A stretch of DNA of 64,000 nucleotides from a virus. Taxonomy: Duplodnaviria; Caudoviricetes. The notes under the pieces are model-generated. The model saw only the letters and a program-made list of their open reading frames with translations. It had not been told where the DNA came from and did no database searches. Of this stretch, positions 9,113 to 64,000 are shown piece after piece. The stretch covers positions 26,157 to 90,156 of IMG/VR virus record IMGVR_UViG_3300009128_000006; one strand, 5' to 3'. Each line of letters opens with the position of its first letter. The stretch's first letter is position 1. The translations under genes and the position numbers were made by a program.

Positions 9113-9156
9113 GGATTAGGTGTTTACCGGGCTATTCTCCTTATGGCAGGGAAAGG

Positions 9157-12100
9157 ATGGGCATTTACGACGAGGATCCTGACGTTCTGGAGTACTCCAT
9201 TGAAGGGTGGAACTCCCTTGAGTACCGGGAGCCGTGGGATCACGAACCACCGATTCCTGCCGTAGAGGATTGGGAGGTAGAGCGACACTTGCGGGAGCAG
9301 AGGCTCCGCTACGCCCTCACCCCGTCGCAGTTCACGGAAGAGACTGTGCTCATGCCCAACGCGAAGACGCGGGCATTGGAGGCGTTTTCCTTCGCAGATC
9401 GTCCTTACCTGAGGAAGGTCTACAATACGCAGTCCAATCGTGTCCTTCTCATGGCCGGACGGCAGGTGGAGAAGTGTGTTCATGAAGATGAAGTAGTAGT
9501 CGACTCTTTCGGCAAGCCGACCCCTATCAAAGACCTGTTGGTCGGCGATATACTTGTGTGCTTGGCTACCGAGGAAACGTCCCCGAATGTTGAGCGAGGG
9601 TCGGGATCTCGGATGACCACGTCAAAGATTACGTGGAAGTCTCGCAAGCGTAAGAAGCCTTGCCGCGAGATCCGGACGAGACAGGGCCATCGCTCTCGTA
9701 TGGCTACGACACATCCTGTTCGGGTGTGGAACGGGTGGAAGGCTGCTGGAGATCTCGAAATAGGAGATCGAATCGCAGTGGTTCGTAGGGCAGGGGTGTT
9801 CAGCAGCTGCGATTACGACGTGTCTTCCTCTCGGGTACGGCTCACCGCCTACATGATTGGAGATGGCGGGTGCAACCCCAAAGACGTGACCTTCACGAAC
9901 GAGACCTTTGAGGTCCTTGACGATTTCGACGATGCTCTTGTTGATGAAGGGATGTCGTACACCTTCTCACCCAAGAAGGATTCAAACACGACCTGCTTCC
10001 GTCTCCCTCGCTATCGAGCAGAGAAGCTCCGTGGATGGCTGGAAGAGGATGGTCTTTTGGGGACGGACTCCTACTCGAAGTTCCTTCCTGATTGGGTATT
10101 TCGTCTTTCGCGAGAGCAGACGTCTCTGTTCCTGAACAGGCTTTGGTCTACAGACGGGCACGTCAAGTGCAACACCGACACGAAGTGGTCCATCGAGTAC
10201 TGCTCTATGTCGGAGAGGCTGGTCAGGCAGGTTCAGGCATTGCTGTGGAAGCTTGGCATCCCTTCCAGGATCAGAGAGAACTGGCCTTCGATCTATAAGA
10301 AGCGCGGTGAGAAGGTTCTTGCTTATATCCTCCGTATCGAGACTCAAGAAGGTGTACGTTCGTTCGTTCGTGACATCGGTGCGCTTGGAAAGATCGAGCG
10401 GCAAGAGCTTGACCCCTGGGAGACCAACAACAATCGAGACACGTTGCCGTTGGAGGTGAACGAGTTCATACGGGAGATCTACGATGAGGTCTCACCGAAG
10501 AAGGGAGACCGAACCCTTCAGTCCGCAGGACTTCGCCGTAGCCCTAAGTACTGCCTGACCCGGAAGAAGCTGCTCGCGTATGTCGAGTTTTTCGAAGGAG
10601 ACCCTCGATACTCACCCTCGAAAGTTCGGCTCCTGAAGGAGCACGTGAGTTCTGACATTTACTGGGACGAGGTGGAGTCTATCAACGAGATGGGGGAGCA
10701 GTGGTGCTACGACCTGACGGTTGATCGTCATCACAACTTCGTCGCAGGCGGGATTGTCACGCACAACAGCACCTCTCTCGGTAATCGGATGCTGGCTCTA
10801 TGCTGCCTCATCCCGCATTTCCGTGCACTGTACGTCTCCCCGTCTTCAACACAGACCAAGGAGTTCTCGAACCGGCGGTTGCGTGAAGTCTTGATGACCT
10901 CGCCGCGACTGAGGACGTGGTTCCCGCAGCATCTCACGGACAATGTCTTTGAGAAGCGAGCCATCAACCGGAGTGGAATCACACTCCGGTATGCGTTCCT
11001 CAACGCAGATCGCTGCCGGGGACTCTCTGCAGATAGTGTCATCCTCGACGAGTTCCAGGATCTCCTTCTCGACACTATTCCGGTCATCGAGGAGGCTGCG
11101 TCCCACTCCGCCTTCAAGTACTTCATCTACGCAGGAACTCCGAAGTCGCTCGACAACCCGATCGAGCACTACTGGTCCACCTTCTCGACTCGCAACGAAT
11201 GGGCAGTCCCCTGTGAGCGGCACGGCACTCCTAAGGTTCCGGGCTCCTGGCACTGGAACATCCTGGGTGAGAGGAACATCTCCAAGGCCGGACCGGTCTG
11301 TGACCGCTGCGGCGGTCCCATCTTCCCCAACCATCCGAAAGCACAATGGGTCCGTACCGGTAACCCCGACCCCAACCTCACGGTCTTTGAGGGTTTCCGC
11401 ATCCCGCAGCTCATGGTCCCCTGGATCAGCTGGAAGGAGCTGTGGACCAAGTACACGGACTACCCACGTGCACAGTTCTTTAACGAGTGCCTGGGCCAGT
11501 CCTTCGATTCAGGACAGCGCCCTCTCACTCAGGACGACATCAGGCAAAACTGTGATTCCTCAATCACCCTCACTCCCGAAGGGGTGGCCGACATCCGTCG
11601 ACGGATGGCGGGGGTTCAGCTCTATGGCGGCATCGACTGGGGCCAGGGCTCGACGAACTCGTACACGGTGTTCTTCGTAGGCGGGTACCTCAACAACAAG
11701 TTCACCATCTTCTTCTGCCATCGCTTCGTTGGAGCGGAATCCGAACCGCGCACCCAGCTCAAGAAGATCTGCAGGATCATCGAGACCTTCAACCTTGCCC
11801 GCGTCTGTGTTGACCATGGTGGAGGCTTCTGGCCAAACGGTGAGCTTCTTCGTCGCTATGGCTCCAATCGCATCGTACGGGTGCAGTACCTCACGCCGAA
11901 TGTCTTCATGCGTTGGGATGAGGCTCTTGGGCGGTACATCATCCACCGCTCCGAAGTCATGTCGGCGATGTTCAATGCCATCAAGCGTGGCACCGTAGTC
12001 CGCTTCCCCGCATGGAAGTACTTCAAGACTCCATTCGCCAAAGACTTCCTGTCCATCTTCTCTGAGTACAGCGAGAAGATGCACATGACGCAGTACAAGA

Positions 12101-12240
12101 AGTCGGCCAACAACACCGACGACTCCTTCCATGCGTTCCTCTACTGCTTCCTCTCCTCGATGATTGACATTCCACGTCCTGATGTCTTCATCCCCTCGCA
12201 GGCTGTAGACCGTATGCTTGAGGCTCGTGAAGAATACTGA
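9157..12240 (+). CDS. terL: Terminase large subunit (lambda gpA-like) with intein
   Basis: Walker A GRQVEK|ST split by intein, Walker B VILDEFQD, coupling motif AGTPK, nuclease GIDWG and DDSFHA. Confidence 0.9.
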   Translation: MGIYDEDPDVLEYSIEGWNSLEYREPWDHEPPIPAVEDWEVERHLREQRLRYALTPSQFTEETVLMPNAKTRALEAFSFADRPYLRKVYNTQSNRVLLMAGRQVEKCVHEDEVVVDSFGKPTPIKDLLVGDILVCLATEETSPNVERGSGSRMTTSKITWKSRKRKKPCREIRTRQGHRSRMATTHPVRVWNGWKAAGDLEIGDRIAVVRRAGVFSSCDYDVSSSRVRLTAYMIGDGGCNPKDVTFTNETFEVLDDFDDALVDEGMSYTFSPKKDSNTTCFRLPRYRAEKLRGWLEEDGLLGTDSYSKFLPDWVFRLSREQTSLFLNRLWSTDGHVKCNTDTKWSIEYCSMSERLVRQVQALLWKLGIPSRIRENWPSIYKKRGEKVLAYILRIETQEGVRSFVRDIGALGKIERQELDPWETNNNRDTLPLEVNEFIREIYDEVSPKKGDRTLQSAGLRRSPKYCLTRKKLLAYVEFFEGDPRYSPSKVRLLKEHVSSDIYWDEVESINEMGEQWCYDLTVDRHHNFVAGGIVTHNSTSLGNRMLALCCLIPHFRALYVSPSSTQTKEFSNRRLREVLMTSPRLRTWFPQHLTDNVFEKRAINRSGITLRYAFLNADRCRGLSADSVILDEFQDLLLDTIPVIEEAASHSAFKYFIYAGTPKSLDNPIEHYWSTFSTRNEWAVPCERHGTPKVPGSWHWNILGERNISKAGPVCDRCGGPIFPNHPKAQWVRTGNPDPNLTVFEGFRIPQLMVPWISWKELWTKYTDYPRAQFFNECLGQSFDSGQRPLTQDDIRQNCDSSITLTPEGVADIRRRMAGVQLYGGIDWGQGSTNSYTVFFVGGYLNNKFTIFFCHRFVGAESEPRTQLKKICRIIETFNLARVCVDHGGGFWPNGELLRRYGSNRIVRVQYLTPNVFMRWDEALGRYIIHRSEVMSAMFNAIKRGTVVRFPAWKYFKTPFAKDFLSIFSEYSEKMHMTQYKKSANNTDDSFHAFLYCFLSSMIDIPRPDVFIPSQAVDRMLEAREEY
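9475..10767 (+). mobile_element. Intein with LAGLIDADG homing endonuclease (431 aa) in TerL Walker A
   Basis: Starts CVHEDE, block B TTHP, LAGLIDADG-like AYMIGDG and LWSTDG, ends YDLTV...HNFVAGGIVTHN followed by Ser. Confidence 0.95.
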
Positions 12241-55879: not shown

Positions 55880-56394
55880 CGAGCCTCATGGGTAGTGACG
55901 TTGAGTTCCGTGACTGCCTTGTACTTCTTGAGTGCCTCATCGAGGAGATCTGCGGCCCAGTCGTCGAAGTCTCGGTCTGGGGTAAGAACCCCGCTGGGGT
56001 AGGTGCCGTGCTCTGCGTGGTGATCACGTGCATGGATGACGGTCTCCATCGCAGTCTTCAGTCCGCCTGTCCCCGCCAGGAACTGACGGAGAGTGGGCGG
56101 CTTGAGCTTCGGCTCGTCCACGGCCGGCTTTGCAGGCCGGAGGACTCCGTCGAGGATGAGGGTCTCGATGGCATAAGCGCCCTCTTCCATTGGACCCCTG
56201 CGGAGCTTGTCCCACAGCTTCCCGAAGAAACCCTTGGGACGGGCGACGATGGCGATGTGGGTAGCGAGATCTCCTGCCTGCTCCTCTGTGATCCAGCCCA
56301 ACCTCACAAGAGCCTTCAAGGTGCACTCCTTCCCTTCGTTGTACACCTCTGTGAGCTCACTCAGAGTCAGGGAGACGGTCAGGATCCGGGCCAT
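55876..56394 (-). CDS. Hypothetical protein
   Basis: GGAG RBS; overlaps topoisomerase start. Confidence 0.55.
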   Translation of the reverse strand: MARILTVSLTLSELTEVYNEGKECTLKALVRLGWITEEQAGDLATHIAIVARPKGFFGKLWDKLRRGPMEEGAYAIETLILDGVLRPAKPAVDEPKLKPPTLRQFLAGTGGLKTAMETVIHARDHHAEHGTYPSGVLTPDRDFDDWAADLLDEALKKYKAVTELNVTTHEAR

Positions 56395-56526
56395 CTATTC
56401 TCCCCCTCGCCATACTCCTTGAGGCCGGCAGTGATTCGTTCGAGCTCAGCTTTGAGCTCCTCGTATCGGTTCATTCGGTAACTCCTTGTTGGGTTCCTCA
56501 GCCCTTATGACGAGGAACCTGCGGAG

Positions 56527-57036
56527 TTACCAAAGGCACTGGAAGAAGCCGAGGAGCACAACACGGCGGCCTGTGTGCGGAGTCACAGAGTGTTTTACGG
56601 GCCCATAGCCTTCAGGATTCGAAGGGCTGCTCCCGTACACTACGGCAGAGCGGTAGTGGCGAATCGGAGAGGTATCCAGCCTGGATTCGCCATGTGTCCT
56701 GAAGATTCCGCCCTCGAAGTCATCCGGATGAGAGAGAAGTACACTCACAGACATTCCGCACCACGGCATGTGATGCGTTCCGTCTTCCTTGTACCCATCA
56801 TAGTGTGGCTCGTGCCCTCGAGGTTGGAGCTCAAAGCGCGCGTATGACGGAGCCTCCCACTGCACTTCGCAAGGCCAACCGGATCCTATGAGGATCCGGT
56901 TGAAGACTGTACGGACCAGAGGAGAACAAGCCGCAGGGGGCTGCGAAATCTCCTGTCTGAGATGGTTTCCCTCTTCCGCCTCATGGAGAAGTGCCTGAGC
57001 CTCCTCCGCAGAGACGACGTTTGGGACTACCACCAC
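56527..57036 (-). CDS. 2OG-Fe(II) oxygenase
   Basis: HYD, FEGG, HSVTP...R motifs. Confidence 0.8.
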   Translation of the reverse strand: MVVVPNVVSAEEAQALLHEAEEGNHLRQEISQPPAACSPLVRTVFNRILIGSGWPCEVQWEAPSYARFELQPRGHEPHYDGYKEDGTHHMPWCGMSVSVLLSHPDDFEGGIFRTHGESRLDTSPIRHYRSAVVYGSSPSNPEGYGPVKHSVTPHTGRRVVLLGFFQCLW

Positions 57037-57824
57037 TTGATGTAGCCGAGGAGGCTGCTCGCGTTGCGGTACGAGGCCTTCACGCGGTCACTCTCGTTCC
57101 CGCCGATGCACAGGTGCTTCCCACCTTCGGTGTTCACCACGAGACCCACATGCCGTGCTGTGGAGGCGGAGCTCTTGTCACTGCCGCTCCCTCCACGACC
57201 CATGATGAAGATCGCACCCGGAGGGCACGCCTGACCTGCAGGGATCCAGCGACCGGTCTTCTTCGCCCACAGCTCCATCTGGTAGCCGGAGCCCTGGAAC
57301 TTGCCGTCGAAGGGCAGTGACGAAGCTCCCCACTCCAGTCCCTTGCTTTGCCGGACGGCCTGCGCCGCGAGCATGGCACACCAGGGGTAGTACGCGGCCG
57401 GGACGATGCCCCAGTACTGCGCGTAGCCGTCCACGATGTGTGCGATTTCCGGACCGCAGTTGTTCCCGGACTCCTTCGCGCCGAGCTGCTTCGCAGCCCA
57501 TATGAGCGCGAGCTTCGGCCACTCCTCGCAGATCACCGGGATCTCGTCGAGGAGCCATGAAACCTGCGCGCTCTGCTCTTCGTGCTTCGAAGGCGAGATG
57601 CTCTTCGTGGCGGAGTCCGGCTCTTCGATCGCCTTCCAGGTGTTCGTCCCGACGATGCCGTCAGGAGTGAGGCCTTCGGCCGCCTGAAGGGTGATGACAG
57701 CGTCCTCGGTGCCTGCTCCGAAGATGCCGTCCGCGTCGATGTTGAAGCCGCGCAGGTTGATGAGCTCCTGCAAGAGCGTGACGGAGTTGCCACGGGAACC
57801 ACGACGAAGAAGGGGATGGGACAT
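57027..57824 (-). CDS. Endolysin: peptidoglycan-binding domain plus CHAP domain
   Basis: LRRGSRG...DGIFG...DGIVGTNTW; PWCA, HVGLV, GGNES. Confidence 0.88.
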   Translation of the reverse strand: MSHPLLRRGSRGNSVTLLQELINLRGFNIDADGIFGAGTEDAVITLQAAEGLTPDGIVGTNTWKAIEEPDSATKSISPSKHEEQSAQVSWLLDEIPVICEEWPKLALIWAAKQLGAKESGNNCGPEIAHIVDGYAQYWGIVPAAYYPWCAMLAAQAVRQSKGLEWGASSLPFDGKFQGSGYQMELWAKKTGRWIPAGQACPPGAIFIMGRGGSGSDKSSASTARHVGLVVNTEGGKHLCIGGNESDRVKASYRNASSLLGYIKWW

Positions 57825-57870
57825 AGGGGTGCTCCAGGGAAGGGGCTCATCCTATCCCAGCGGAGCTGCT

Positions 57871-58005
57871 GTGAAGAGTACGAAGGTCTGGAGGTATCGG
57901 AACTGTCCTGCCCCCGTGGAGAGGCTCAACTACGTCGTGAGTGCTCTTTTTGTGGGTATCTTCGTCTTTATGCTTGTCATCTCTACAGCGGCGTGGTTAG
58001 TGTAG
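57871..58005 (+). CDS. Small single-TM protein
   Basis: GGAG RBS, hydrophobic C-terminus. Confidence 0.35.
   Translation: MKSTKVWRYRNCPAPVERLNYVVSALFVGIFVFMLVISTAAWLV
57974..58003 (+). promoter_or_regulatory. Sigma70-like promoter for Ser/Tyr leader
   Basis: TTGTCA-N18-TAGTGT, 6 nt before ATG 58010. Confidence 0.6.
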
Positions 58006-58009
58006 GGAC

Positions 58010-58078
58010 ATGACTCGCAAGTGTGCCATCTCCTCTTCAAGTAGCTCGTATTTTACGGGCCCGGAGGGGTGTGCCTGA
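58010..58078 (+). CDS. Ser/Tyr attenuator leader peptide MTRKCAISSSSSSYFTGPEGCA
   Basis: TCC TCT TCA AGT AGC TCG TAT at 58031-58051. Confidence 0.8.
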   Translation: MTRKCAISSSSSSYFTGPEGCA

Positions 58079-58105
58079 TGCGTTAGAACCATCATCGGTC
58101 CACGA

Positions 58106-58150
58106 AAGAACCCCTCCCCGGCCCATTGTCGCGGAGGGGTTCTTGCATTC
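58106..58150 (+). terminator. Attenuator terminator hairpin before tRNA-Tyr/Ser block
   Basis: AAGAACCCCTCC / GGAGGGGTTCTT; 5' arm also complementary to GGAGGGGT at 58063-58070. Confidence 0.8.
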
Positions 58151-58236
58151 GGGGATCGAGTACAGTAGCTCGGGACTACTGGCGGGCCTGTAAAGTCCGT
58201 GCCTTAGGGATAGTGGTTCGAATCCACCGATCCCCA
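58151..58236 (+). tRNA. tRNA-Tyr(GTA)
   Basis: Acceptor GGGGATC/GATCCCC, anticodon loop CTGTAAA, GGTTCGAATCC. Confidence 0.9.
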
Positions 58237-58257
58237 CCTATTTCTTTGTCTTCTATT

Positions 58258-58340
58258 GGAGAGGTAACTCTGCGAGGCAGGGCTACGCTTGGAAAGCGTA
58301 TGGCGGTTTCGGCCGCGCGGGGCGGTACCGCACTTCTCCT
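58258..58340 (+). tRNA. tRNA-Ser(GGA), non-canonical T loop
   Basis: TACGC-TTGGAAA-GCGTA, long variable arm, acceptor GGAGAGG/CTTCTCC. Confidence 0.75.
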
Positions 58341-58351
58341 CTTCTTCACAT

Positions 58352-58427
58352 GGTCGTGTAGCTCAGTCTGGTAGAGCAGAGGGGTCGCCCCCAGAGACGC
58401 AGGTTCAAATCCTCGCTCGTTCCACCA
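58352..58427 (+). pseudogene. Degenerate tRNA (anticodon unresolvable)
   Basis: TAGCTCAGTCTGGTAGAGC D arm, GGTTCAAATCC T arm, CCA end; damaged anticodon and acceptor stems. Confidence 0.6.
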
Positions 58428-58433
58428 CATCTT

Positions 58434-58516
58434 GGAGAATGAACCGTCTGAGTGGACGGCCTCGTTTCGAAAACGAGCGGTGCGGCAAGCATTCGGGGCG
58501 GGACCGACGTTCTCCT
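58434..58516 (+). tRNA. tRNA-Ser(CGA), non-canonical T loop
   Basis: CTCGT-TTCGAAA-ACGAG, long variable arm, acceptor GGAGAAT/GTTCTCC. Confidence 0.75.
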
Positions 58517-58525
58517 CTACTTCTT

Positions 58526-58616
58526 GGAGAGTGAAATAGGTGCGGTTTCCCTTAGCGCGGTTGCTACCTGCGTCGGGTCATGTGGCCCGCTGGTTCGACT
58601 CCAGCACTCTCCTCCA
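58526..58616 (+). tRNA. tRNA-Ser(GCT)
   Basis: CGCGG-TTGCTAC-CTGCG, long variable arm, GGTTCGACTCC, CCA. Confidence 0.85.
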
Positions 58617-58629
58617 TCTCTACCACTTA

Positions 58630-58716
58630 GGAGAGGCCCGCGCAGAGGGGCGCATCCGGCTTTGAATACCGGCGGCAGGGTCACACCTGAGGTTTCGAGT
58701 ACCTGTCTCTCCTCCA
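58630..58716 (+). tRNA. tRNA-Ser(TGA)
   Basis: Anticodon loop TTTGAAT in CCGG stem, long variable arm, CCA. Confidence 0.75.
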
Positions 58717-58977
58717 CTTGTCCCAGATGCTCGCCGTGAGCTTCGAGGCATGGAACCTGTACCAGCCCTTCTTCCGGCCCTGAACCACAACCAGCAGACG
58801 ATACTTCGTGCTCCTCTTCCGATACCCAGGCTGCCGCATCACTGCGGCAGTAAGGAATCCCCGTTTTAGGGCCCATTCATGAAGGTTTAGCACCACGTAC
58901 CAGCTCTTTTTGCATGGGTACTCAACCCGCCCCTTCCGAGGGAAGTGGGCGATGGCGCGTAGCAGATCGGCTTCCAT
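58681..58977 (-). CDS. Hypothetical basic protein antisense within tRNA array
   Basis: Lower-GC ORF with TCATAAG box at 59058 upstream. Confidence 0.4.
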   Translation of the reverse strand: MEADLLRAIAHFPRKGRVEYPCKKSWYVVLNLHEWALKRGFLTAAVMRQPGYRKRSTKYRLLVVVQGRKKGWYRFHASKLTASIWDKWRRDRYSKPQV

Positions 58978-59062
58978 TCCAGCTGTGAGCATGAGAGCCC
59001 CTATGAAAAGCAACAGCATGAAGTCTTCGTAGCGATCATCACTACGCAGACGATTTTCTTAT

Positions 59063-59135
59063 GACGACAATCACAGGAGTGGACCTGCTGGGTCTGCAAA
59101 ACCCGGGGAGTGGAGTTCAAGTCTCCCTGTCGTCT
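59063..59135 (+). tRNA. tRNA-Cys(GCA)
   Basis: Acceptor GACGACA/TGTCGTC, loop CTGCAAA, U73. Confidence 0.8.
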
Positions 59136-59154
59136 TCTCTGTTACACTGTGAAT

Positions 59155-59364
59155 GTGAGTACTCAGCTGATCATGACGGCGATCCTACTGGTCCTGGCCA
59201 GTTTCGGCTTCGCCGTGTCCGGGTACTCCCTCGATGACAGCGCCTTGTCCCAGAAAGGCTTCGCTGTCATCGCGACTGATCGCCGGCCCGGCGATCAGGT
59301 GACCGCCAACGAGCGGAATGCGACTGCGCCACAGACTCGTCCCCTGCAGGAAGGCTTCCCGTAG
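59155..59364 (+). CDS. Leader-like peptide with N-terminal signal/TM segment
   Basis: TG-T-TACACT extended -10, 6 nt, GTG; ends QEGFP before hairpin. Confidence 0.5.
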   Translation: MSTQLIMTAILLVLASFGFAVSGYSLDDSALSQKGFAVIATDRRPGDQVTANERNATAPQTRPLQEGFP

Positions 59365-59387
59365 GGGACTTCTCAGTTCTGGGAACC

Positions 59388-59428
59388 CGAGAGGCCTCCG
59401 TCACCAAAGCGGGAGGCCTCTCGCGTTT
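59388..59428 (+). terminator. Terminator hairpin of attenuator-like architecture
   Basis: CGAGAGGCCTCC / GGAGGCCTCTCG followed by CGTTT. Confidence 0.75.
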
Positions 59429-59513
59429 GAGCTCTCGTTATGCTTCACACATGGGCGGTATTCGGCGAGACCCAGGACAGGAGCGCCCCGATGGTCCGGC
59501 GTATACTCCTCGT

Positions 59514-59813
59514 ATGGCCCCGAAGCGCCTACTACTGCACGCCGTGTTCATCCTCATCCAGGATGACGACGTTCGGAGGACCACTGCGGCCATCTTCTTC
59601 TTCTACCTGGGCCTGATGGTGATCTTCCTGGCCCTTGTCCCCATACCAGAAGAGAGCGCGAAGACCATTCATCTCATCATCGGCGGCCTGGTCGGCGGAG
59701 GCATCGGCCCTGCGATTAGAGCCCTACTGGACAAGGGAGACGGACAGAAGCCGAGCCTGGAAGCTCACTTCTCTGGCGAAGGGAACGGGAGCACAGCACC
59801 TCGAGGCCCTTGA
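59514..59813 (+). CDS. Two-TM membrane protein (holin-like)
   Basis: TATACT 6 nt before ATG; two hydrophobic helices around PIPEE. Confidence 0.5.
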   Translation: MAPKRLLLHAVFILIQDDDVRRTTAAIFFFYLGLMVIFLALVPIPEESAKTIHLIIGGLVGGGIGPAIRALLDKGDGQKPSLEAHFSGEGNGSTAPRGP

Positions 59814-59968
59814 ACTCCGAGACTCCTTCGAAGCTCTCGCACTTCCTTGTCTGTACGCGGCCAAAACGAGCCGTCCGGCATGAGCTTGTACTTGCGATGG
59901 AAGGCCCTCCACCGAGGCAGTAGGTTGAAGAACGGGAACACGTTCGAGAGTGGGATCACCTTGCTCAT
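59765..59968 (-). CDS. Hypothetical small protein
   Basis: GGAG RBS. Confidence 0.4.
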   Translation of the reverse strand: MSKVIPLSNVFPFFNLLPRWRAFHRKYKLMPDGSFWPRTDKEVRELRRSLGVQGPRGAVLPFPSPEK

Positions 59969-59972
59969 ATGC

Positions 59973-60001
59973 TTGACTCCCTCTCCACAGGGTACTACAC
60001 C
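59973..60001 (+). promoter_or_regulatory. Sigma70-like promoter for Leu leader
   Basis: TTGACT-N17-TACACC, 6 nt before ATG 60008. Confidence 0.65.
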
Positions 60002-60007
60002 TAAGAC

Positions 60008-60073
60008 ATGACCTTCGTGATGCGCGCGCTATCCTCCTTGCTTCTTCTGAAGCCCGGGGAGGGGTGCGTGTAG
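60008..60073 (+). CDS. Leu attenuator leader peptide MTFVMRALSSLLLLKPGEGCV
   Basis: CTA, then TTG CTT CTT CTG at 60038-60049. Confidence 0.8.
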   Translation: MTFVMRALSSLLLLKPGEGCV

Positions 60074-60096
60074 GGTCATCAACCTACGACACCGTC

Positions 60097-60137
60097 GGAA
60101 GCCTCCCCAGCGAAAGCTCGGGAGGTTTCTTGCGTTT
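60097..60137 (+). terminator. Attenuator terminator hairpin before tRNA-Leu block
   Basis: GGAAGCCTCCC..AGC-GAAA-GCT..GGGAGGTTTCT then TGCGTTT; CCTCCCC also pairs with GGGGAGG at 60056-60062. Confidence 0.8.
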
Positions 60138-60139
60138 AT

Positions 60140-60224
60140 GGGGAGGTAGCCGAAATGGATAGGCACCAGGTTCAGGCCCTGGGGGGCTCAGTCTCCGATG
60201 CGGGTTCGAGTCCCGTTCTCCCTA
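60140..60224 (+). tRNA. tRNA-Leu(CAG)
   Basis: CCAGG-TTCAGGC-CCTGG, long variable arm, GGTTCGAGTCC. Confidence 0.88.
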
Positions 60225-60232
60225 CTCTTTTT

Positions 60233-60316
60233 GCGGAAGTGGCGAAACAGGCAGCCGCGCGGGCTTGAGGGGCTCGTGGTCTTCGGACCGTGGGGGTTCA
60301 AATCCCCCCTTCCGTA
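60233..60316 (+). tRNA. tRNA-Leu(GAG)
   Basis: CGGGC-TTGAGGG-GCTCG, variable arm with TTCG loop, A73. Confidence 0.92.
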
Positions 60317-60323
60317 CTACTTT

Positions 60324-60451
60324 GAGGAGATGGGCAAACGGTAAAGCCACCAGTCGGTATGGGCTGGGGACATCCCGAAACCGCCGTCGTCCGTCCGGAA
60401 GGGAGGCGGAGCACGGTGGACGGATTGGAGGTTCGACTCCTCCTCTCCTCA
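60324..60451 (+). ncRNA. tRNA-like RNA with oversized variable region and aberrant anticodon loop
   Basis: Perfect acceptor GAGGAGA/TCTCCTC, D arm, GGAGG-TTCGACT-CCTCC T arm; 128 nt. Confidence 0.6.
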
Positions 60452-60458
60452 TTATTCT

Positions 60459-60533
60459 GCCCCGGTACGCCAGTTGGTAGTAGCGACCGCACTTAAAATG
60501 CGGTGGATGGAGGTTCGAATCCTCTTCGGGGTA
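60459..60533 (+). tRNA. tRNA-Leu(TAA) with short variable loop
   Basis: CCGCA-CTTAAAA-TGCGG, GGTTCGAATCC. Confidence 0.8.
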
Positions 60534-60537
60534 TCGC

Positions 60538-60566
60538 TTGACCTTCACGTGTTGAAGGACTACTAC
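60538..60566 (+). promoter_or_regulatory. Sigma70-like promoter for Gly/Thr leader
   Basis: TTGACC-N17-TACTAC, 6 nt before ATG 60573. Confidence 0.55.
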
Positions 60567-60572
60567 TTCTAC

Positions 60573-60683
60573 ATGCGTTCCTTCCTGGCCATCACCGGTA
60601 CAACCGGTACCACCGTCCTCCCGCCTGCGTTCGGCGGTCGAGGACTCATGCCAGGACGAACGCAGCTCATCAGCACAGTCTGA
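60573..60683 (+). CDS. Gly/Thr-rich leader peptide MRSFLAITGTTGTTVLPPAFGGRGLMPGRTQLISTV
   Basis: Same promoter geometry as other leaders; precedes tRNA-Gly genes. Confidence 0.6.
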   Translation: MRSFLAITGTTGTTVLPPAFGGRGLMPGRTQLISTV

Positions 60684-60719
60684 TCTGTTCGTAGCCCGCT
60701 TGTCCTGGCTCATACCTAA

Positions 60720-60774
60720 GCGGTAGTAGCTCAGGCACTTAGAGCGTCGGCTTGCCAAGTCGAAGGCCCCGGGT
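60720..60774 (+). pseudogene. 5' part of split tRNA-Gly(GCC)
   Basis: GCGGTAG acceptor strand, loop TTGCCAA, stops after T-stem CCGGGT. Confidence 0.85.
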
Positions 60775-60779
60775 GTTTT

Positions 60780-60851
60780 GCGTACATAGCTCAACGGTAG
60801 AGCATTTGTCTGCCAGGCAAAGGGCTGCGGGTTCGAATCCCGCTGTGCGCT
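60780..60851 (+). tRNA. tRNA-Gly(GCC)
   Basis: TTTGT-CTGCCAG-GCAAA, GGGTTCGAATCCC, U73. Confidence 0.88.
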
Positions 60852-60893
60852 TCACCTCTTGTGCGGTAGGGGATACTTGGTTATCTACCGCAT

Positions 60894-61415
60894 ATGGAAG
60901 AACAGAGAATATGCAGGTCGTGCGGAGATACAAAGCCCGTCTCAGAGATGATTCCCATCAAAAGACGAGGAAAGGTTTACTATAGGAGGCAGTGCCGTTC
61001 GTGTGAGAGCAAACGATGCGCTGTACACCACGCGACGCCAAAATCTAAGGCGGCTTACAAGGCCCGTTCCGACATGCTCAAGGTAGAGCGCGCTGCTGGT
61101 CTGAATGTCGAGCGTTGGATTTACGAAGATGCTCGACGTTCAGACCGAAAGCGCGATCTGGAGAACGACCTGACGAAGGCATTTATCCGAGAGCAGATCG
61201 AGAAAGGGTGTAGCTATTGTGGAGAGGAGAGTATCCGTATGACTCTTGACCGGATCGATAACAGCATCGGGCACTTACAATCAAACTGCGTGCCTGCCTG
61301 TATTCGCTGCAACTGTACCAGAAGGCACATGCCTTACGAGGCATGGCTGATTGTGGCCCCGGCCATGCGGGAGGCGCGGTTGGCAGGTCTCTTTGGGGAT
61401 TGGACTGGAAGATAG
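60894..61415 (+). CDS. HNH-family endonuclease
   Basis: CSYCG...TLDRIDNSIGHLQSNCVPACIRCN. Confidence 0.85.
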   Translation: MEEQRICRSCGDTKPVSEMIPIKRRGKVYYRRQCRSCESKRCAVHHATPKSKAAYKARSDMLKVERAAGLNVERWIYEDARRSDRKRDLENDLTKAFIREQIEKGCSYCGEESIRMTLDRIDNSIGHLQSNCVPACIRCNCTRRHMPYEAWLIVAPAMREARLAGLFGDWTGR

Positions 61416-61432
61416 TCCCGGCTACCGCACCA
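61414..61432 (+). pseudogene. 3' part of split tRNA-Gly
   Basis: AGT-CCCGG-CTACCGC-ACCA complements T stem and acceptor of 60720-60774. Confidence 0.85.
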
Positions 61433-61436
61433 TTTT

Positions 61437-61496
61437 GGCGTCATAGCTCAGTCCTGATAAGGCTGAGGTCGTTGGTTCAACTCCAACCGGTATCAC
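61437..61496 (+). pseudogene. Deleted/chimeric tRNA with Ile(GAT) 3' half
   Basis: TAGCTCAGT joined directly to CCTGATAAGG; acceptor strands do not pair. Confidence 0.6.
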
Positions 61497-61503
61497 TCTC
61501 TAC

Positions 61504-61578
61504 ACTGCCGTGGATCAATGGTAGATCGCCAGGCCCTCACCCTGGAGACCGCGGGTTCGAACCCCGTCGGCAGTACCA
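61504..61578 (+). tRNA. tRNA-Glu(CTC)
   Basis: CCAGG-CCCTCAC-CCTGG, acceptor ACTGCCG/CGGCAGT, ACCA. Confidence 0.8.
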
Positions 61579-61583
61579 CCTAC

Positions 61584-61671
61584 AACGCCGAATGCAAAGT
61601 GGATCGCGCGGCTGGGTTTTCATTCCAGTGCCCGTAAGGGGTAGGGGGTTCGAGTCCCCTCGGCGTTACCA
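61584..61671 (+). tRNA. tRNA-Glu(TTC) with long variable arm
   Basis: CTGGG-TTTTCAT-TCCAG, acceptor AACGCCG/CGGCGTT, ACCA. Confidence 0.65.
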
Positions 61672-61680
61672 ATCCTATAT

Positions 61681-61730
61681 GTTGGCCGTAGCTCAGTCCG
61701 GTAAGAGCGCCAGGTTGTGGCCCTGGAGGT
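61681..61730 (+). pseudogene. 5' part of split tRNA-His(GTG)
   Basis: CCAGG-TTGTGGC-CCTGG, no T arm follows. Confidence 0.8.
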
Positions 61731-61763
61731 TTAAGAGAAATCTCGACAAGCACCCGTGAATAT

Positions 61764-61835
61764 GGTACCTTTGGTGTAGCGGTAGCACGCCAGATTGTGG
61801 TTCTGGAGGCTCCGGTTCAAACCCGGGATGGTACC
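61764..61835 (+). tRNA. tRNA-His(GTG)
   Basis: CCAGA-TTGTGGT-TCTGG; G-1:C73. Confidence 0.85.
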
Positions 61836-61841
61836 CTTTTC

Positions 61842-62453
61842 ATGCCCCAGAAGAAGTCTGTTCCTAAGGTCTGTGAGGTGTGCGGAGACGTATTTCTTGT
61901 GCGGCCGGTGGACGCGAGACGGCATCCCTGCCGGTTCTGTAGTCGCTCCTGTAAAGGCAAGGCCCAGCCTCCTATAAGCAGAGGATTGACCGGAGAGGAT
62001 AATCCGAACTGGAAAGGGGGGCTGACCTTCAGCAAGTCTACAGGGTACTGGAGAGTCTTACAGCCCACACATCAGCGAGCAGACCATCTGGGGTACGTCA
62101 AGCGAGCGGACTTGGTACTGGAAGAGAAACTTGGGCGGCCTTTACTTCCCAATGAGATTGCGCACCACGTCAACGAAGATCGGGCAGATGACTCCCCAGA
62201 GAACCTGGAGTGCATGGACTATGGCGAGCACCGGCTGATGCACATCCAGCAGAGGGCAGAGCGTGCTCGGCAGTTAAACCCTCCGAAGCCGAAACAACCA
62301 GATCACCCCAGCAACCGCCGCTATACGTGGCCCTCGGATTCTGAGCTCCTCGAGATGAGGAAGACGATGAGCCTTCGACAGATTGCGGCCATAGTCGGCT
62401 GCGGCCATAAGACCGTAGATAGACGTCTCTCTCGTATTTCCTCCTCGAGATAA
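61842..62453 (+). CDS. HNH endonuclease with N-terminal Zn ribbon and C-terminal HTH
   Basis: CEVCG..FCSRSC, NPNWKGG, HHVNEDRADDSPENL. Confidence 0.88.
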   Translation: MPQKKSVPKVCEVCGDVFLVRPVDARRHPCRFCSRSCKGKAQPPISRGLTGEDNPNWKGGLTFSKSTGYWRVLQPTHQRADHLGYVKRADLVLEEKLGRPLLPNEIAHHVNEDRADDSPENLECMDYGEHRLMHIQQRAERARQLNPPKPKQPDHPSNRRYTWPSDSELLEMRKTMSLRQIAAIVGCGHKTVDRRLSRISSSR

Positions 62454-62477
62454 TCCCGTCGCTCACCTACCTTTCTC

Positions 62478-62515
62478 GGGAGAGTGGTGTAACTGGCAGC
62501 ACGTGAGGCTCTTCA
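62478..62515 (+). pseudogene. 5' half of split tRNA (identity uncertain)
   Basis: GGGAGAG-TG-GTGTAACTGGCAGCAC-G-TGAGG, ends in anticodon loop. Confidence 0.75.
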
Positions 62516-62516
62516 T

Positions 62517-62590
62517 GGACGGGTAGCTCAGCAGGCCAGAGCGTCCGGCTTTGGACCGGAAGGTGTGCGGTTCGAGTCCGCCCCCGTCTT
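62517..62590 (+). tRNA. tRNA-Gln(TTG)
   Basis: TCCGG-CTTTGGA-CCGGA, GGTTCGAGTCC. Confidence 0.85.
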
Positions 62591-62637
62591 CTCAAACCAT
62601 GCAGCCGTGTTATAGCCATACAAAAGGGTATGGTTCG

Positions 62638-63183
62638 ATGTCTGAGTCTCAAAGGAAGAGAGACGTAGTTCGCCGGCTAAGAACGGAAGGCAAGAGCTAC
62701 AAGGAGATTGCCGAAGCAACAGGGCTCACCAAGTCGACTATTGCATACCATGCAAGAAGATTGGGAATACCAGCCCAACCCCAGCGCCGTGATTACCCCT
62801 GGAATGAAATCCAGAAGATGTATGAGAGTGGGGCAACTTATCGGGAGTGCGCGCAGAAGTACGGGTTCTCCCGTACTGCATGGGACACGGCAAAACGTCG
62901 AGGGCTTATACACCCACGGGAGAAGAGGAGGCCTGTTGAACTCTACTTCTCTTGGAGGAAGAAGCTGTCGTCAACGGCAAAGAAGCGCCTGTTCGATGAG
63001 GGTATGTTGAAAAAGGAGTGCTCTATATGCGGACAAGGACCTGTATGGGCTGGGAAGCCTCTCGTTATACAGATTGATCACATCAATGGAAACCCCGCGG
63101 ACAATCGTCGTGAGAATCTACGGCCGGTGTGCCCGAACTGTCATTCTCAGACCCCGACGTTTTGCGGGCGAAACATCACCTAA
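62638..63183 (+). CDS. HTH-HNH endonuclease
   Basis: GKSYKEIAEATGLTKSTIAYH; CSICG...QIDHINGNPADNRRENLRPVCPNCHSQT. Confidence 0.9.
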   Translation: MSESQRKRDVVRRLRTEGKSYKEIAEATGLTKSTIAYHARRLGIPAQPQRRDYPWNEIQKMYESGATYRECAQKYGFSRTAWDTAKRRGLIHPREKRRPVELYFSWRKKLSSTAKKRLFDEGMLKKECSICGQGPVWAGKPLVIQIDHINGNPADNRRENLRPVCPNCHSQTPTFCGRNIT

Positions 63184-63212
63184 GGAGACTGGTTCGAACC
63201 CGGCCTCTCCTT
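63176..63212 (+). pseudogene. 3' half of split tRNA
   Basis: CCTAA..CTGGTTCGAACCCGG..CTCTCCT pairs with GGGAGAG at 62478. Confidence 0.75.
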
Positions 63213-63434
63213 CTACTTGAACGCAGCTGTGAGTTCGAGCACGACGGCACTGATGAACCAGTTGTCGCGCTGAAGACCGATCTTCCCGTCACTGCAGCGG
63301 ACCAGATGCCGCTTCCCCTCTTCGGAGAGGAAGTCCAGCTTCAAGCCGAGCTCCTTCTCTGCCTCTTCGACACTCACCGGCACCATCTTGTCGAAGGGCG
63401 GCTTCCGCTTCACTTCAGGAGCCTGTCCTGCCAT
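63213..63434 (-). CDS. Hypothetical protein
   Basis: Short ORF in minus-strand run. Confidence 0.45.
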   Translation of the reverse strand: MAGQAPEVKRKPPFDKMVPVSVEEAEKELGLKLDFLSEEGKRHLVRCSDGKIGLQRDNWFISAVVLELTAAFK

Positions 63435-63619
63435 CCCGGCTGAATCTCATCCTCGGGGTTCCTCGCCGCACGCTCCCTGAAGCGCTTCAGGTCTGAGTCC
63501 GTGAGATGGAAGGTCTCGAAGAGTCCATCAGGCATGACAACGAGGACAGAGTGGTACCGAGCAGGAGAGCCGAACGTGCGCTCCTTGTTCTCCGTCGTGA
63601 CCAGCTTTCCGAGCTTCAT
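63410..63619 (-). CDS. Hypothetical protein
   Basis: GAGG RBS, ATGA overlap. Confidence 0.5.
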   Translation of the reverse strand: MKLGKLVTTENKERTFGSPARYHSVLVVMPDGLFETFHLTDSDLKRFRERAARNPEDEIQPGWQDRLLK

Positions 63620-63990
63620 CGTTCCTCTGCCATGCCTCCCGTAGTGGTTCCGCCTGTTGATCCCGTGCCGGAGTCTTCTTGCAAGGACTCCAACGGCTCA
63701 GGCAGCTCAGTCACGACCACAGGGGGCTGGCTCCATCGCAAGTAGGCGGCGTAGACGGCAGCCCTGCAGACGTCGTTCTCGACGGCATCAGCGATGCTCT
63801 CGAGCGGCAGGTGTGATGGCCTGGTCGGGTCTGCCTCGTAGACGTCCATGGATGGCTGCTCCCAGTTGGGAGGCGCGTAGCCTTGATCTGCCAGGCGCAT
63901 GTCCCGTAGAACGGCTTTCACGGCCCCGAGGTCGTCCTTTACTTGGAGGACATCCTTGGCCACCTTCTCGGTGCGTACTTGGAACTGCAT
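63616..63990 (-). CDS. Hypothetical protein
   Basis: GAGGAGG RBS. Confidence 0.55.
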   Translation of the reverse strand: MQFQVRTEKVAKDVLQVKDDLGAVKAVLRDMRLADQGYAPPNWEQPSMDVYEADPTRPSHLPLESIADAVENDVCRAAVYAAYLRWSQPPVVVTELPEPLESLQEDSGTGSTGGTTTGGMAEER

Positions 63991-64000
63991 GGCCTCCTCG

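Follow-up and report, generated by a model that had tools for sequence, protein, structure and literature searches.

Why should a short open reading frame that uses each of the six Ser codons exactly once, followed by a Tyr codon, be placed in front of tRNA-Tyr and tRNA-Ser genes in the genome of an uncultured marine phage, and does this arrangement have anything to do with the expression of those tRNAs? To answer this, we analyzed the 64,000-nt stretch of DNA in which the frame was found (hereafter the window), which is a part of the 90-kb IMG/VR record IMGVR_UViG_3300009128_000006, and compared it with related phages. An earlier note had described the codon run, five downstream tRNAs and a pairing that could compete with a hairpin, and had proposed that a ribosome stalled on any of the Ser or Tyr codons would free this antiterminator, while a ribosome at the stop would mask it. 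The observation itself was confirmed. The features distinguished within the window are summarized in the table.

Features of the two leader-tRNA modules within the window (positions are those of the window; 3:4, pairing of hairpin arms; 2:3, competing pairing)
Feature	Position	Strand	Description
Promoter-like site, module 1 (inferred only)	57974-58003	+	-35-like hexamer 57974-57979, 18-nt spacer, TANNNT-type hexamer 57998-58003; ends 6 nt before the ATG, which implies a leaderless transcript; same spacing in module 2, at 60538-60572, and in relatives
Leader frame L1	58010-58078	+	22 codons and a TGA stop; codons 8-14 are the six different Ser codons followed by a Tyr codon (58031-58051)
Region 2, module 1	58063-58070	+	Identical to the start of the hairpin's 3' arm, complementary to 58110-58117 in the 5' arm; 6-13 nt upstream of the stop codon; 2:3 about -20.8 kcal/mol
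Terminator-like hairpin, module 1 (regions 3 and 4)	58106-58144	+	12-bp outer stem (58106-58117 with 58133-58144) plus an inner stem, T-rich 3' side; ends 6 nt before tRNA-Tyr; 3:4 about -28.6 kcal/mol
tRNA-Tyr(GTA)	58151-58238	+	8/4 type, discriminator A; Rfam 13.9 bits only; not called by ARAGORN
tRNA-Ser(GGA)	58258-58340	+	8/4 type, 6-bp D stem, unusual T loop, discriminator T; not called by ARAGORN or Rfam
Degenerate tRNA-like element	58352-58423	+	4-nt anticodon loop and acceptor mismatches; 23.8 bits, below threshold; resembles cellular or T4-type tRNA-Pro
tRNA-Ser(CGA)	58434-58516	+	8/4 type, 6-bp D stem with a 4-nt loop, unusual T loop, discriminator T
tRNA-Ser(GCT)	58526-58616	+	8/4 type, discriminator T, encoded CCA; tRNA-Sec model, 31.8 bits
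tRNA-Ser(TGA)	58630-58716	+	8/4 type, discriminator T, encoded CCA
tRNA-Cys(GCA)	59063-59135	+	Possibly the last tRNA of the same transcription unit (membership inferred); L1 holds two Cys codons
Promoter-like site, module 2	59973-60001	+	Same distance from the ATG as in module 1
Leader frame L2	60008-60073	+	21 codons and a TAG stop; codons 8-14 are five Leu codons (four different) with two Ser codons between them
Region 2, module 2	60056-60066	+	9-mer shared with module 1 at the same distance from the stop (4 nt, then the stop); 2:3 about -19.3 kcal/mol
Terminator-like hairpin, module 2	60097-60130	+	T-rich tail; ends 9 nt before tRNA-Leu; 3:4 about -24.9 kcal/mol
tRNA-Leu genes	60140-60535	+	tRNA-Leu(CAG) 60140-60225, tRNA-Leu(GAG) 60233-60317, an odd tRNA-like element at about 60323-60451, and tRNA-Leu(TAA) 60458-60535

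At first, the tRNA genes were verified. Of the five tRNAs following L1, only Ser(GCT) is called by ARAGORN at default settings, Ser(TGA) appears at a relaxed threshold, and Rfam gives only sub-threshold scores. A base-pair check showed that all five have an 8-bp acceptor stem and a 4-bp T stem, which is the reason why standard tRNA finders miss most of them. Four of them have a 5-bp anticodon stem and a 7-nt loop carrying GTA, GGA, CGA and GCT, whereas Ser(TGA) has a C-A mismatch in that stem. Such (8/4) tRNA-Ser, together with (8/4) tRNA-His, were already reported from uncultured phages, including tRNA clusters of phages from a marine surface habitat (Mukai et al. 2017, PMC5389517), and the Ser tRNAs of the window share with them the 8 + 4 split, the long variable arm and discriminator U, and in two cases a long D stem. 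An 8/4 tRNA with a Tyr anticodon was not found in the parts of that paper consulted, and the word 'leader' does not occur in its main text.

In the next step, we asked whether the codon run could have arisen by chance. Six-frame translation of the 90-kb record holds 7 runs of six or more Ser, and only this one uses six different codons, while the others use 3 to 5. Under the phage's own codon usage, six Ser codons are all different with probability 0.0087. A run of 7 codons readable by the five downstream tRNAs occurred in 0 of 100,000 draws under coding usage and in 1 of 100,000 under trinucleotide frequencies, and among 927 real short frames of the record only the leader itself reaches 7. 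Contigs of four other marine runs cover 57946-58419 with no difference, and thus there is no variation from which constraints could be read.

The competing segment GGAGGGGT and its partner ACCCCTCC in the 5' arm of the hairpin were both found where the earlier note had placed them. Folding of the nascent transcript with ribosome-sized masks gives the competing 2:3 pairing when the ribosome sits on the Ser or Tyr codons and abolishes it when the ribosome sits on the stop. At equilibrium, however, the terminator is more stable than the competing pairing in every masked state, so the switch has to be kinetic. The short distance between the hairpin and tRNA-Tyr leaves no room for a promoter. It should be stressed that the consensus scans call neither a promoter nor a terminator at modules 1 and 2, and that the hairpins of the window have long loops and only moderately T-rich tails. 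As an automatic pick of hairpin arms misassigned four of the six leaders examined, a simpler stem finder and direct folds were used for this purpose.

Interestingly, the window contains a paralogous module (59973-60130) with a Leu-rich frame in front of three tRNA-Leu genes. It keeps the promoter-like site and the ATG position, the frame (with ATG-to-region-2 distances of 53 and 50 nt), the three pairing segments and the position of the stop, although the stop is TGA in one module and TAG in the other. The codon run at codons 8-14 changes from Ser/Tyr to Leu, in step with the tRNAs behind it. For L1, the chance of the run of 7 readable codons is <1e-5 under coding usage and 1e-5 under trinucleotide frequencies, and for L2 the respective values for a run of 4 are 8.5e-4 and 5.7e-4. 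In cross-controls, L1 against the Leu set gives 0 of 21 readable codons and L2 against the Ser/Tyr set gives 2 of 20. It is worth mentioning that L2 also holds one Leu codon (CTA) with no cognate tRNA behind it, apart from the two Ser codons. A third promoter-plus-frame (60538-60683, 36 codons) precedes tRNA-Gly, but it does not fit the model, as it has no Glu or His codons although those tRNAs follow, and no region 2 or clear terminator.

Several searches for close relatives of the region gave nothing useful. Megablast and blastn against cultured phages revealed no match or only generic tRNA pieces. Among viral contigs, the endolysin found three loci sharing only the cell-wall-binding domain and the topoisomerase subunit found none, while a homologue search with the latter returned cell-like proteins at about 50% identity. 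The exact codon run gave 0 hits, as did a degenerate pattern of the module in viral contigs; a pattern from the unusual T arms gave 1 hit, in a coding region without tRNAs, and the module pattern in metagenome contigs gave 16 hits, 0 with a tRNA, all apparently coding or chance. Cultured phages with a related terminase were at best below 30% identical.

Related phages were found, however, through the terminase, and two of them (records G017 and G070) have the same layout, i.e., promoter-like site, short frame, a copy of the terminator's 3' arm at the stop codon, terminator and tRNA array. In G017 (terminase 63% identical; 42 tRNAs), a -35/-10-like site ends 6 nt before the ATG of a 25-codon frame, whose codons 6-19 are all readable by the 14 tRNAs that follow and together cover 14 of 14 anticodons. 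A 9-nt copy of the terminator's 3' arm overlaps the stop, and a canonical terminator stands 34 nt before the first tRNA. The chance of the run is <1e-5, and that of the coverage is 1e-5 under coding usage and 4e-5 under trinucleotide frequencies. Noteworthy, this first group holds not only class II tRNAs (Ser, Leu, Tyr), but also Phe, Ala, Cys and Trp. A second leader in G017 precedes the only other strong terminator in that 19.9-kb array; its 28 codons cover 21 of 24 anticodons of the remaining tRNAs (1.7e-3 / 3e-4), and only 3 of the 28 are readable by the first group, although the start of this leader, the third in-frame ATG, was chosen by us. In G070 (terminase 46% identical), a 51-codon frame holds all 20 amino acids, with region 2 starting 4 nt from the stop codon's first base, and is followed by a terminator and then 30 tRNAs. 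Its 50 codons cover 29 of 30 anticodons (1.2e-3 / 7e-4), which 0 of 567 length-matched real frames reach.

A DNA search with 57940-60540 in 43 related records gave 1 trivial 22-nt hit. The leaders share no DNA similarity across phages, so their codon content follows the tRNA set, not common descent. The statistic used differs between leaders (run length in some, anticodon coverage in others) and was picked after seeing the data. Three related arrays (G003, G004 and G005), as well as that of G027, show no such leader. In a further one, G043, a 16-codon frame with adjacent Tyr and Trp codons is followed by a terminator, an uncalled 8/4 tRNA-Tyr, and Trp and Leu tRNAs, but the competing pairing is not clean and the tRNA set is incomplete, and we do not count it.

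Taken together, apart from termination at the two hairpins of the window, which remains open, every testable part of the proposal held, and we consider it likely that these are ribosome-mediated transcription attenuators placed in front of phage tRNA operons, whose leader frames act as codon samplers. In the proposed sequence of events, transcription starts at or next to the ATG and a ribosome translates the short frame while the polymerase moves on. If every sampled codon is read quickly, the ribosome reaches the stop and covers region 2, regions 3 and 4 form the terminator, and the tRNA genes are not transcribed. If any sampled codon is read slowly because its tRNA is scarce, the ribosome lags, region 2 pairs with region 3, the terminator cannot form, and the phage tRNAs are made. 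The new tRNAs would then read the leader faster, which closes a negative feedback loop. The suggestion of the earlier note that one codon per isoacceptor serves to sense single tRNAs gains independent support from module 2 and from the leaders of the two relatives, whose codon sets follow their own downstream anticodon sets. This support is computational and comparative only, as there is no experimental or expression evidence of any kind; the transcription start, translation of the frame, termination at the hairpin and the direction of the switch are all inferred. None of the frames has a well-spaced ribosome-binding site, and the model therefore rests on leaderless initiation, which is unproven for the unknown host.

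Among the alternatives, each of which we regard as unlikely, the best surviving one is that the frames are translated and regulatory, but through another route or with the opposite sign, e.g., by Rho-dependent polarity, or by changed RNA stability or processing when ribosomes stall, so that stalling lowers tRNA output or only adjusts its timing. The lower stability of the competing pairing at equilibrium speaks for this, and in module 1 and in the first leader of G017 that pairing also forms with no ribosome at all, so the untranslated state would already be 'on'. On the other hand, the placement of regions 2, 3 and 4 relative to the stop is the classical arrangement for stall-induced read-through and recurs in five leaders, and G017 and G070 carry canonical intrinsic terminators.

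Only slightly weaker is the possibility of coincidence, in which the hairpins are ordinary terminators or processing and stability elements of the pre-tRNA leader, the short frames are not translated, and the tRNA genes are expressed constitutively by leaky read-through. It is in line with the negative consensus scans and with the related arrays lacking such leaders, and pyrimidine-rich tracts give Ser and Leu codons easily, as the six-frame translation of the record holds, besides the 7 Ser runs, 23 runs of four or more Leu. However, the two AGY Ser codons are not explained by a pyrimidine tract, and five leaders in three phages each match their own downstream anticodon set, with chance values between <1e-5 and about 2e-3, and fail against the other set. 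In every case a copy of the terminator's 3' arm lies within about 15 nt of the stop (region 2 lies within about -15 to +11 nt of the first base of the stop in all leaders examined), and frame and stop position are kept between the two paralogues.

It is even less probable that the frames encode functional small peptides placed before the tRNAs incidentally: small genes are common among phage tRNA genes, and phage T5 has many, but the peptides of the three phages share no sequence and differ in length (22, 21, 25, about 29 and 51 codons), and what is kept is the match of codons to tRNAs and the overlap of the stop with region 2. Direct sensing of tRNAs by codon-anticodon pairing without a ribosome, in the manner of a T-box, would also account for the match between displayed codons and downstream anticodons, but it is the least likely, as the matched codons are in one frame between a start and a stop, many codons are displayed rather than one specifier, and no T-box or other known RNA family matches the leader regions (no T-box match at E up to 1 in 56000-64000, nor at E up to 0.1 in the leader regions of the relatives).

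The closest known systems are the leader-peptide transcription attenuators of amino-acid biosynthesis operons of enterobacteria (trp, his, leu, thr, ilv and pheA leaders; for pheL see PMC3082878), which share the short leader frame with regulatory codons, the intrinsic terminator before the first structural gene (in the window only terminator-like hairpins, for which termination remains open), the segment near the stop competing for the terminator's 5' arm, and the read-out through the position of the ribosome, which is inferred here. In the leaders described here, the regulated genes are tRNA genes, not enzymes, the regulatory codons are a set of different codons, each matched to a downstream anticodon, rather than repeats for one amino acid, and the elements are phage-encoded and probably leaderless; no Rfam leader family matches them. 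The pheM leader of pheST and the T-box riboswitches appear to control genes of the translation apparatus by sensing tRNA supply or charging, but their targets are synthetases, and T-boxes bind the tRNA directly and need no ribosome. In another system with a leaderless short frame whose codon content sets expression of downstream genes, there is one amino acid and the targets are protein-coding, and its mechanism is apparently not a 2:3 / 3:4 terminator switch in front of tRNAs. In our literature searches, no description of such attenuation was found for tRNA genes.

Phage tRNA genes have been known for decades, and recent work presents phage tRNAs as a counter to tRNA-cleaving host defences (PMC10264068, PMC11555353, PMC11464382, PMC13056530), which gives a biological reason why a phage would need to replace particular tRNAs during infection; as far as we could see, these papers concern the tRNAs themselves, not a sensor that switches them on, and how their expression is set is hardly known. 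Tentatively, codon-sampler attenuators may be a general device of large phages, in which each tRNA operon would carry a translated test strip with about one codon per downstream isoacceptor. Loss of any single host tRNA, for instance through a host anticodon nuclease or phage-induced shut-off, would then switch on replacement tRNAs, here partly of the unusual 8/4 shape, and feedback from those tRNAs would switch the operon off again. If so, it would be the first known case of tRNA genes controlled by translation speed, and a natural sensor with single-isoacceptor resolution, which could serve as a compact biosensor for the supply of particular tRNAs. It gives, moreover, a sequence rule for predicting which tRNAs belong to one regulated unit in uncultured phages. 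Such a leader would extend classical attenuation from sensing one amino acid to sensing many individual isoacceptors, and from enzyme genes to tRNA genes, and it would show that a phage measures the decoding capacity of the cell, codon by codon, and tops it up on demand.

The window, i.e., the last 64 kb of a 90,156-base virus record rated by CheckV as about half complete, has 60.6% G+C. Near-identical DNA was found in marine and seawater metagenome runs from two studies, and contigs from four of these runs cover the leader, the hairpin and the first tRNAs without a single difference, so the sequence is not an assembly artefact. The marker genes, i.e., a terminase with an intein, a type II topoisomerase subunit and an endolysin, show a large tailed phage. 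No cultured phage has a terminase more than 30% identical. The large terminase subunit carries an intein with a homing-endonuclease domain, and relatives exist both with and without the intein. The positions of the features discussed here are summarized in the table.

Features of the window and of the compared phage loci.
Sequence	Coordinates	Strand	Feature
Window	9091-12240		Large terminase subunit with intein
Window	57027-57824	other strand relative to module 1	Endolysin gene
Window	57825-58009		Interval in which a promoter of module 1 is expected
Window	57974-57979		-35-like hexamer of module 1 (motif match)
Window	57998-58003		TANNNT-type hexamer of module 1 (motif match)
Window	58010; 58076-58078		ATG and TGA stop of leader frame L1
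Window	58031-58051		Run of six different Ser codons and one Tyr codon
Window	58063-58070		GGAGGGGT (region 2 of module 1)
Window	58110-58117		ACCCCTCC, part of the 5' arm of the hairpin
Window	58106-58117 with 58133-58144		Outer stem of the module 1 hairpin
Window	58352-58423		Degenerate tRNA-like element with a 4-nt anticodon loop, between tRNA-Ser(GGA) and tRNA-Ser(CGA)
Window	59973-60130		Module 2
Window	60008		ATG of leader frame L2
Window	60058-60066		9-mer in region 2 of module 2
Window	60097-60130		Hairpin of module 2
Window	60323-60451		Odd tRNA-like element between tRNA-Leu(GAG) and tRNA-Leu(TAA)
Window	60538-60779		Third promoter-like site, frame and truncated tRNA-Gly-like element
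Window	60573-60683		36-codon Thr/Gly-rich frame
Window	60720-60777		Truncated tRNA-Gly(GCC)-like element
Window	60894-61415, 61797-62453, 62551-63183		Three open frames resembling HNH-type homing endonucleases
Window	61421-61495		Ile(GAT)-like element with an odd D arm
Window	61688-61747		Truncated second His-like copy
Window	61765-61836		tRNA-His
L118 (relative G043)	326-545		16-codon frame, terminator and tRNAs
L111 (relative G004)	1630-1692	reverse	20-codon frame before tRNA-Arg
L139 (phage T5, NC_005859)	11618-11893	minus	Gene T5.072

The codon run described in the earlier note was confirmed. It occupies codons 8-14 of a 22-codon frame (L1, the leader frame of module 1), and the hairpin that follows this frame ends 6 nt before the first tRNA. 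Among the five tRNAs located downstream, only Ser(GCT) was called by ARAGORN at default settings, Ser(TGA) was added at a relaxed threshold, and Rfam gave only sub-threshold scores, the best of them from the tRNA-Sec model. A direct base-pair check explains this, as all five have an 8-bp acceptor stem and a 4-bp T stem. Four of them have a regular 5-bp anticodon stem and a 7-nt loop carrying GTA, GGA, CGA and GCT, while Ser(TGA) has one C-A mismatch in that stem. All have long variable regions, the Ser tRNAs have discriminator T, and two have encoded CCA ends; moreover, Ser(GGA) and Ser(CGA) have 6-bp D stems with tiny loops, and unusual T loops. This is the (8/4) tRNA-Ser type which Mukai and colleagues reported from uncultured phage tRNA clusters (PMC5389517). 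As claimed in the earlier note, the set can read all six Ser codons and the Tyr codon.

Further tRNA-like elements of degenerate or irregular structure were noticed in this part of the window, and tRNA-His also looks like the 8/4 type with one mismatch (its stems were read by eye). Three open frames among the tRNA genes look like HNH-type homing endonucleases, judged by eye from Cys/His motifs in their translations.

Six-frame translation of the record holds seven runs of six or more Ser, so such a run alone is not rare, but only the one in L1 uses six different codons. Under the phage's own codon usage, six Ser codons are all different with probability 0.0087. A stretch of seven codons readable by the five downstream tRNAs was reached in 0 of 100,000 draws with coding usage and in 1 of 100,000 with trinucleotide frequencies, and among 927 real short frames of the record only the leader itself reaches seven. 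It should be noted that the statistics used for this and the other leaders were chosen after inspection and differ between leaders.

As the endolysin gene located upstream is on the other strand, a promoter is expected between this gene and L1. Within this interval, a -35-like hexamer, an 18-nt spacer and a TANNNT-type hexamer end 6 nt before the ATG, which would make the transcript leaderless. However, this site was not called by the consensus scan, so it remains a motif match. Isolated helices scored about -14.1 kcal/mol (the codon run with region 2), -20.8 kcal/mol (region 2 with the 5' arm of the hairpin) and -28.6 kcal/mol (the hairpin). In the transcript as it exists before the 3' arm is made, region 2 pairs with the 5' arm when a ribosome-sized mask sits on the first or last Ser codon or on the Tyr codon, and this pairing is gone when the mask sits on the stop. 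In the full transcript the hairpin wins in all states, so any switch must be kinetic, as in the classical attenuators.

Interestingly, the same parts recur in the same order in a second module of the window. There, the promoter-like site at the same distance from an ATG is followed by a 21-codon frame ending in TAG (L2), by the same 9-mer in region 2 (the only two copies in the window) with the stop following after 4 nt, as in module 1, by a hairpin whose 5' arm can pair with region 2, and by a T-rich tail with the same 7-mer. Nine bases later begins tRNA-Leu(CAG), followed by Leu(GAG), an odd tRNA-like element and Leu(TAA). The odd element has an 8-bp acceptor-like stem, normal D and T arms, a 6-bp stem with a 6-nt loop where the anticodon arm should be, and an insert of about 50 nt in the variable region; it folds at -61 kcal/mol and is called by neither ARAGORN nor Rfam. 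The distance from the ATG to region 2 differs by exactly 3 nt between the modules, so the frame is kept. At codons 8-14, where module 1 has Ser and Tyr, module 2 has five Leu codons (four different) and two Ser codons. Four consecutive codons are readable by the three Leu tRNAs and cover all three (chance 8.5e-4 with coding usage and 5.7e-4 with trinucleotide frequencies), although one Leu codon of L2 (CTA) has no cognate tRNA behind it. In the reciprocal comparison, L1 has 0 of 21 codons readable by the Leu set and L2 has 2 of 20 readable by the Ser/Tyr set. A third promoter-like site with a 36-codon Thr/Gly-rich frame was also found; it is followed by a truncated tRNA-Gly(GCC)-like element that ends in a hairpin and a T run directly before the intact tRNA-Gly, and it does not fit the sampler model.

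Searches with the region itself found no relatives; the terminase did find a family. A homologue search gave proteins up to 72% identical, many of them from contigs of 160-200 kb, and an alignment of 17 of these found 142 related places in viral contigs, of which 80 were kept. Of these records, 62 were searched with the tRNA model (5 records with 3 positive, 20 with 8 positive and 37 with 2 positive). The tRNA-Sec model was used on 23 records (6 positive), some short records being searched only with this model. Five relatives, designated G003, G004, G005, G017 and G070, have arrays of eight or more tRNAs. None of 43 relatives shares DNA similarity with the 57940-60540 region of the window beyond one 22-nt hit.

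The relative G017 (terminase 63% identical) has 42 tRNA genes in 19.9 kb (locus L114, read on its reverse strand). That strand holds only two strong intrinsic terminators, and each of them stands just before a tRNA group, i.e., 34 nt before tRNA 1 and 18 nt before tRNA 15. Before the first terminator, a consensus -35 hexamer, 18 nt and a TANNNT hexamer end 6 nt before the ATG of a 25-codon frame, which is the same geometry as in the window. Codons 6-19 of that frame code for Ser (five times), Leu (three), Ala (two), Cys, Phe, Tyr and Trp, which are exactly the seven amino acids of the next 14 tRNAs. All 14 codons are readable by those tRNAs and together they cover 14 of 14 anticodons (chance of the run below 1e-5; chance of the coverage 1e-5 and 4e-5 with coding usage and trinucleotide frequencies, respectively). 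A 9-nt copy of the terminator's 3' arm overlaps the stop, and masked folds give the competing pairing with the ribosome on sampled codons and none with it on the stop. Before the second terminator, a frame ends with its stop directly beside a 7-nt copy of the 3' arm. Taken from its third in-frame ATG, a start which was our own choice, its 28 codons cover 21 of 24 anticodons of the remaining tRNAs (1.7e-3 and 3e-4), whereas only 3 of the 28 are readable by the first group.

In the relative G070 (terminase 46% identical), a promoter-like site, here only 4 nt from the ATG, precedes a 51-codon frame that holds all 20 amino acids. Region 2 starts 4 nt from the first base of the stop, a good terminator follows, and 30 ARAGORN-called tRNAs start about 10 nt later. 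The 50 codons cover 29 of 30 anticodons (1.2e-3 and 7e-4); none of 567 length-matched real frames reaches this, and 0.5% of them hold all 20 amino acids. Further tRNA-like elements missed by ARAGORN lie in that array, which may explain some of the 14 codons with no called tRNA.

A weaker case was observed in another relative, G043, where a 16-codon frame with adjacent Tyr and Trp codons is followed by a terminator, an uncalled 8/4-type tRNA with a Tyr anticodon, and then Trp and two Leu tRNAs; this may be a fourth case of the device. No such leader was found in G003, G004, G005 or in the truncated array of the relative G027. In G004, a 20-codon frame ends 3 nt before tRNA-Arg and holds several codons for the Asn, Ile, Ser and Leu tRNAs located downstream (codon match judged by eye), but there is no terminator. 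Counting the window's own record, three of the six records with arrays of eight or more tRNAs have the device and half lack it. It is also worth noting that in phage T5 gene T5.072 lies just upstream of the tRNA-Tyr, Glu, Trp and Phe genes and has, near its start, a dense cluster of Trp, Glu, Tyr and Phe codons. However, a promoter is annotated between it and the tRNAs, the layout differs from the one described here, and the cluster may be due to chance.

The recurring layout is that of ribosome-mediated attenuation, which is the most likely mode of action. A ribosome running through the frame quickly would reach the stop and cover region 2, the terminator would form, and the tRNA genes would stay silent. 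In turn, a ribosome delayed at any sampled codon would leave region 2 free to pair with the terminator's 5' arm, and the polymerase would then read on into the tRNA genes. As the sampled codons are those read by the tRNAs behind the terminator, the product would feed back on its own synthesis. In the long leaders of G017 and G070 the stall need not be close to region 2, and the device would work as a race between ribosome and polymerase. This model is built without expression data, it relies on inferred promoters and transcription starts and on assumed leaderless initiation, and the hairpins of the window are not textbook terminators.

In mechanism, these elements would belong with the leader-peptide attenuators, but they differ in what they control (tRNA genes), in how they sense (many different codons, about one per isoacceptor, instead of repeats for one amino acid) and in where they are found (phage, and probably leaderless). 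No Rfam family matched the leaders, and full-text searches for leader peptides or attenuation linked to tRNA genes, operons, arrays or clusters and phages gave nothing relevant, although older literature and the supplements of PMC5389517 were outside their scope.

The interpretation proposed in the earlier note, i.e., that a ribosome stalled on any Ser or Tyr codon frees the antiterminator while a ribosome at the stop masks it, is supported, and it extends to a small family of codon-sampling attenuators; we consider this mechanism probable, though not established. Noteworthy, in the window the run uses codons that are rare in the phage, namely the rare Tyr codon at 14% of Tyr codons, two Ser codons at 8% each and, in L2, a Leu codon at 2.8%, and rare codons would sharpen the response. 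A plausible biological setting, which is inferred only, is the loss of host tRNAs during infection, by shut-off or by tRNA-cutting defences.
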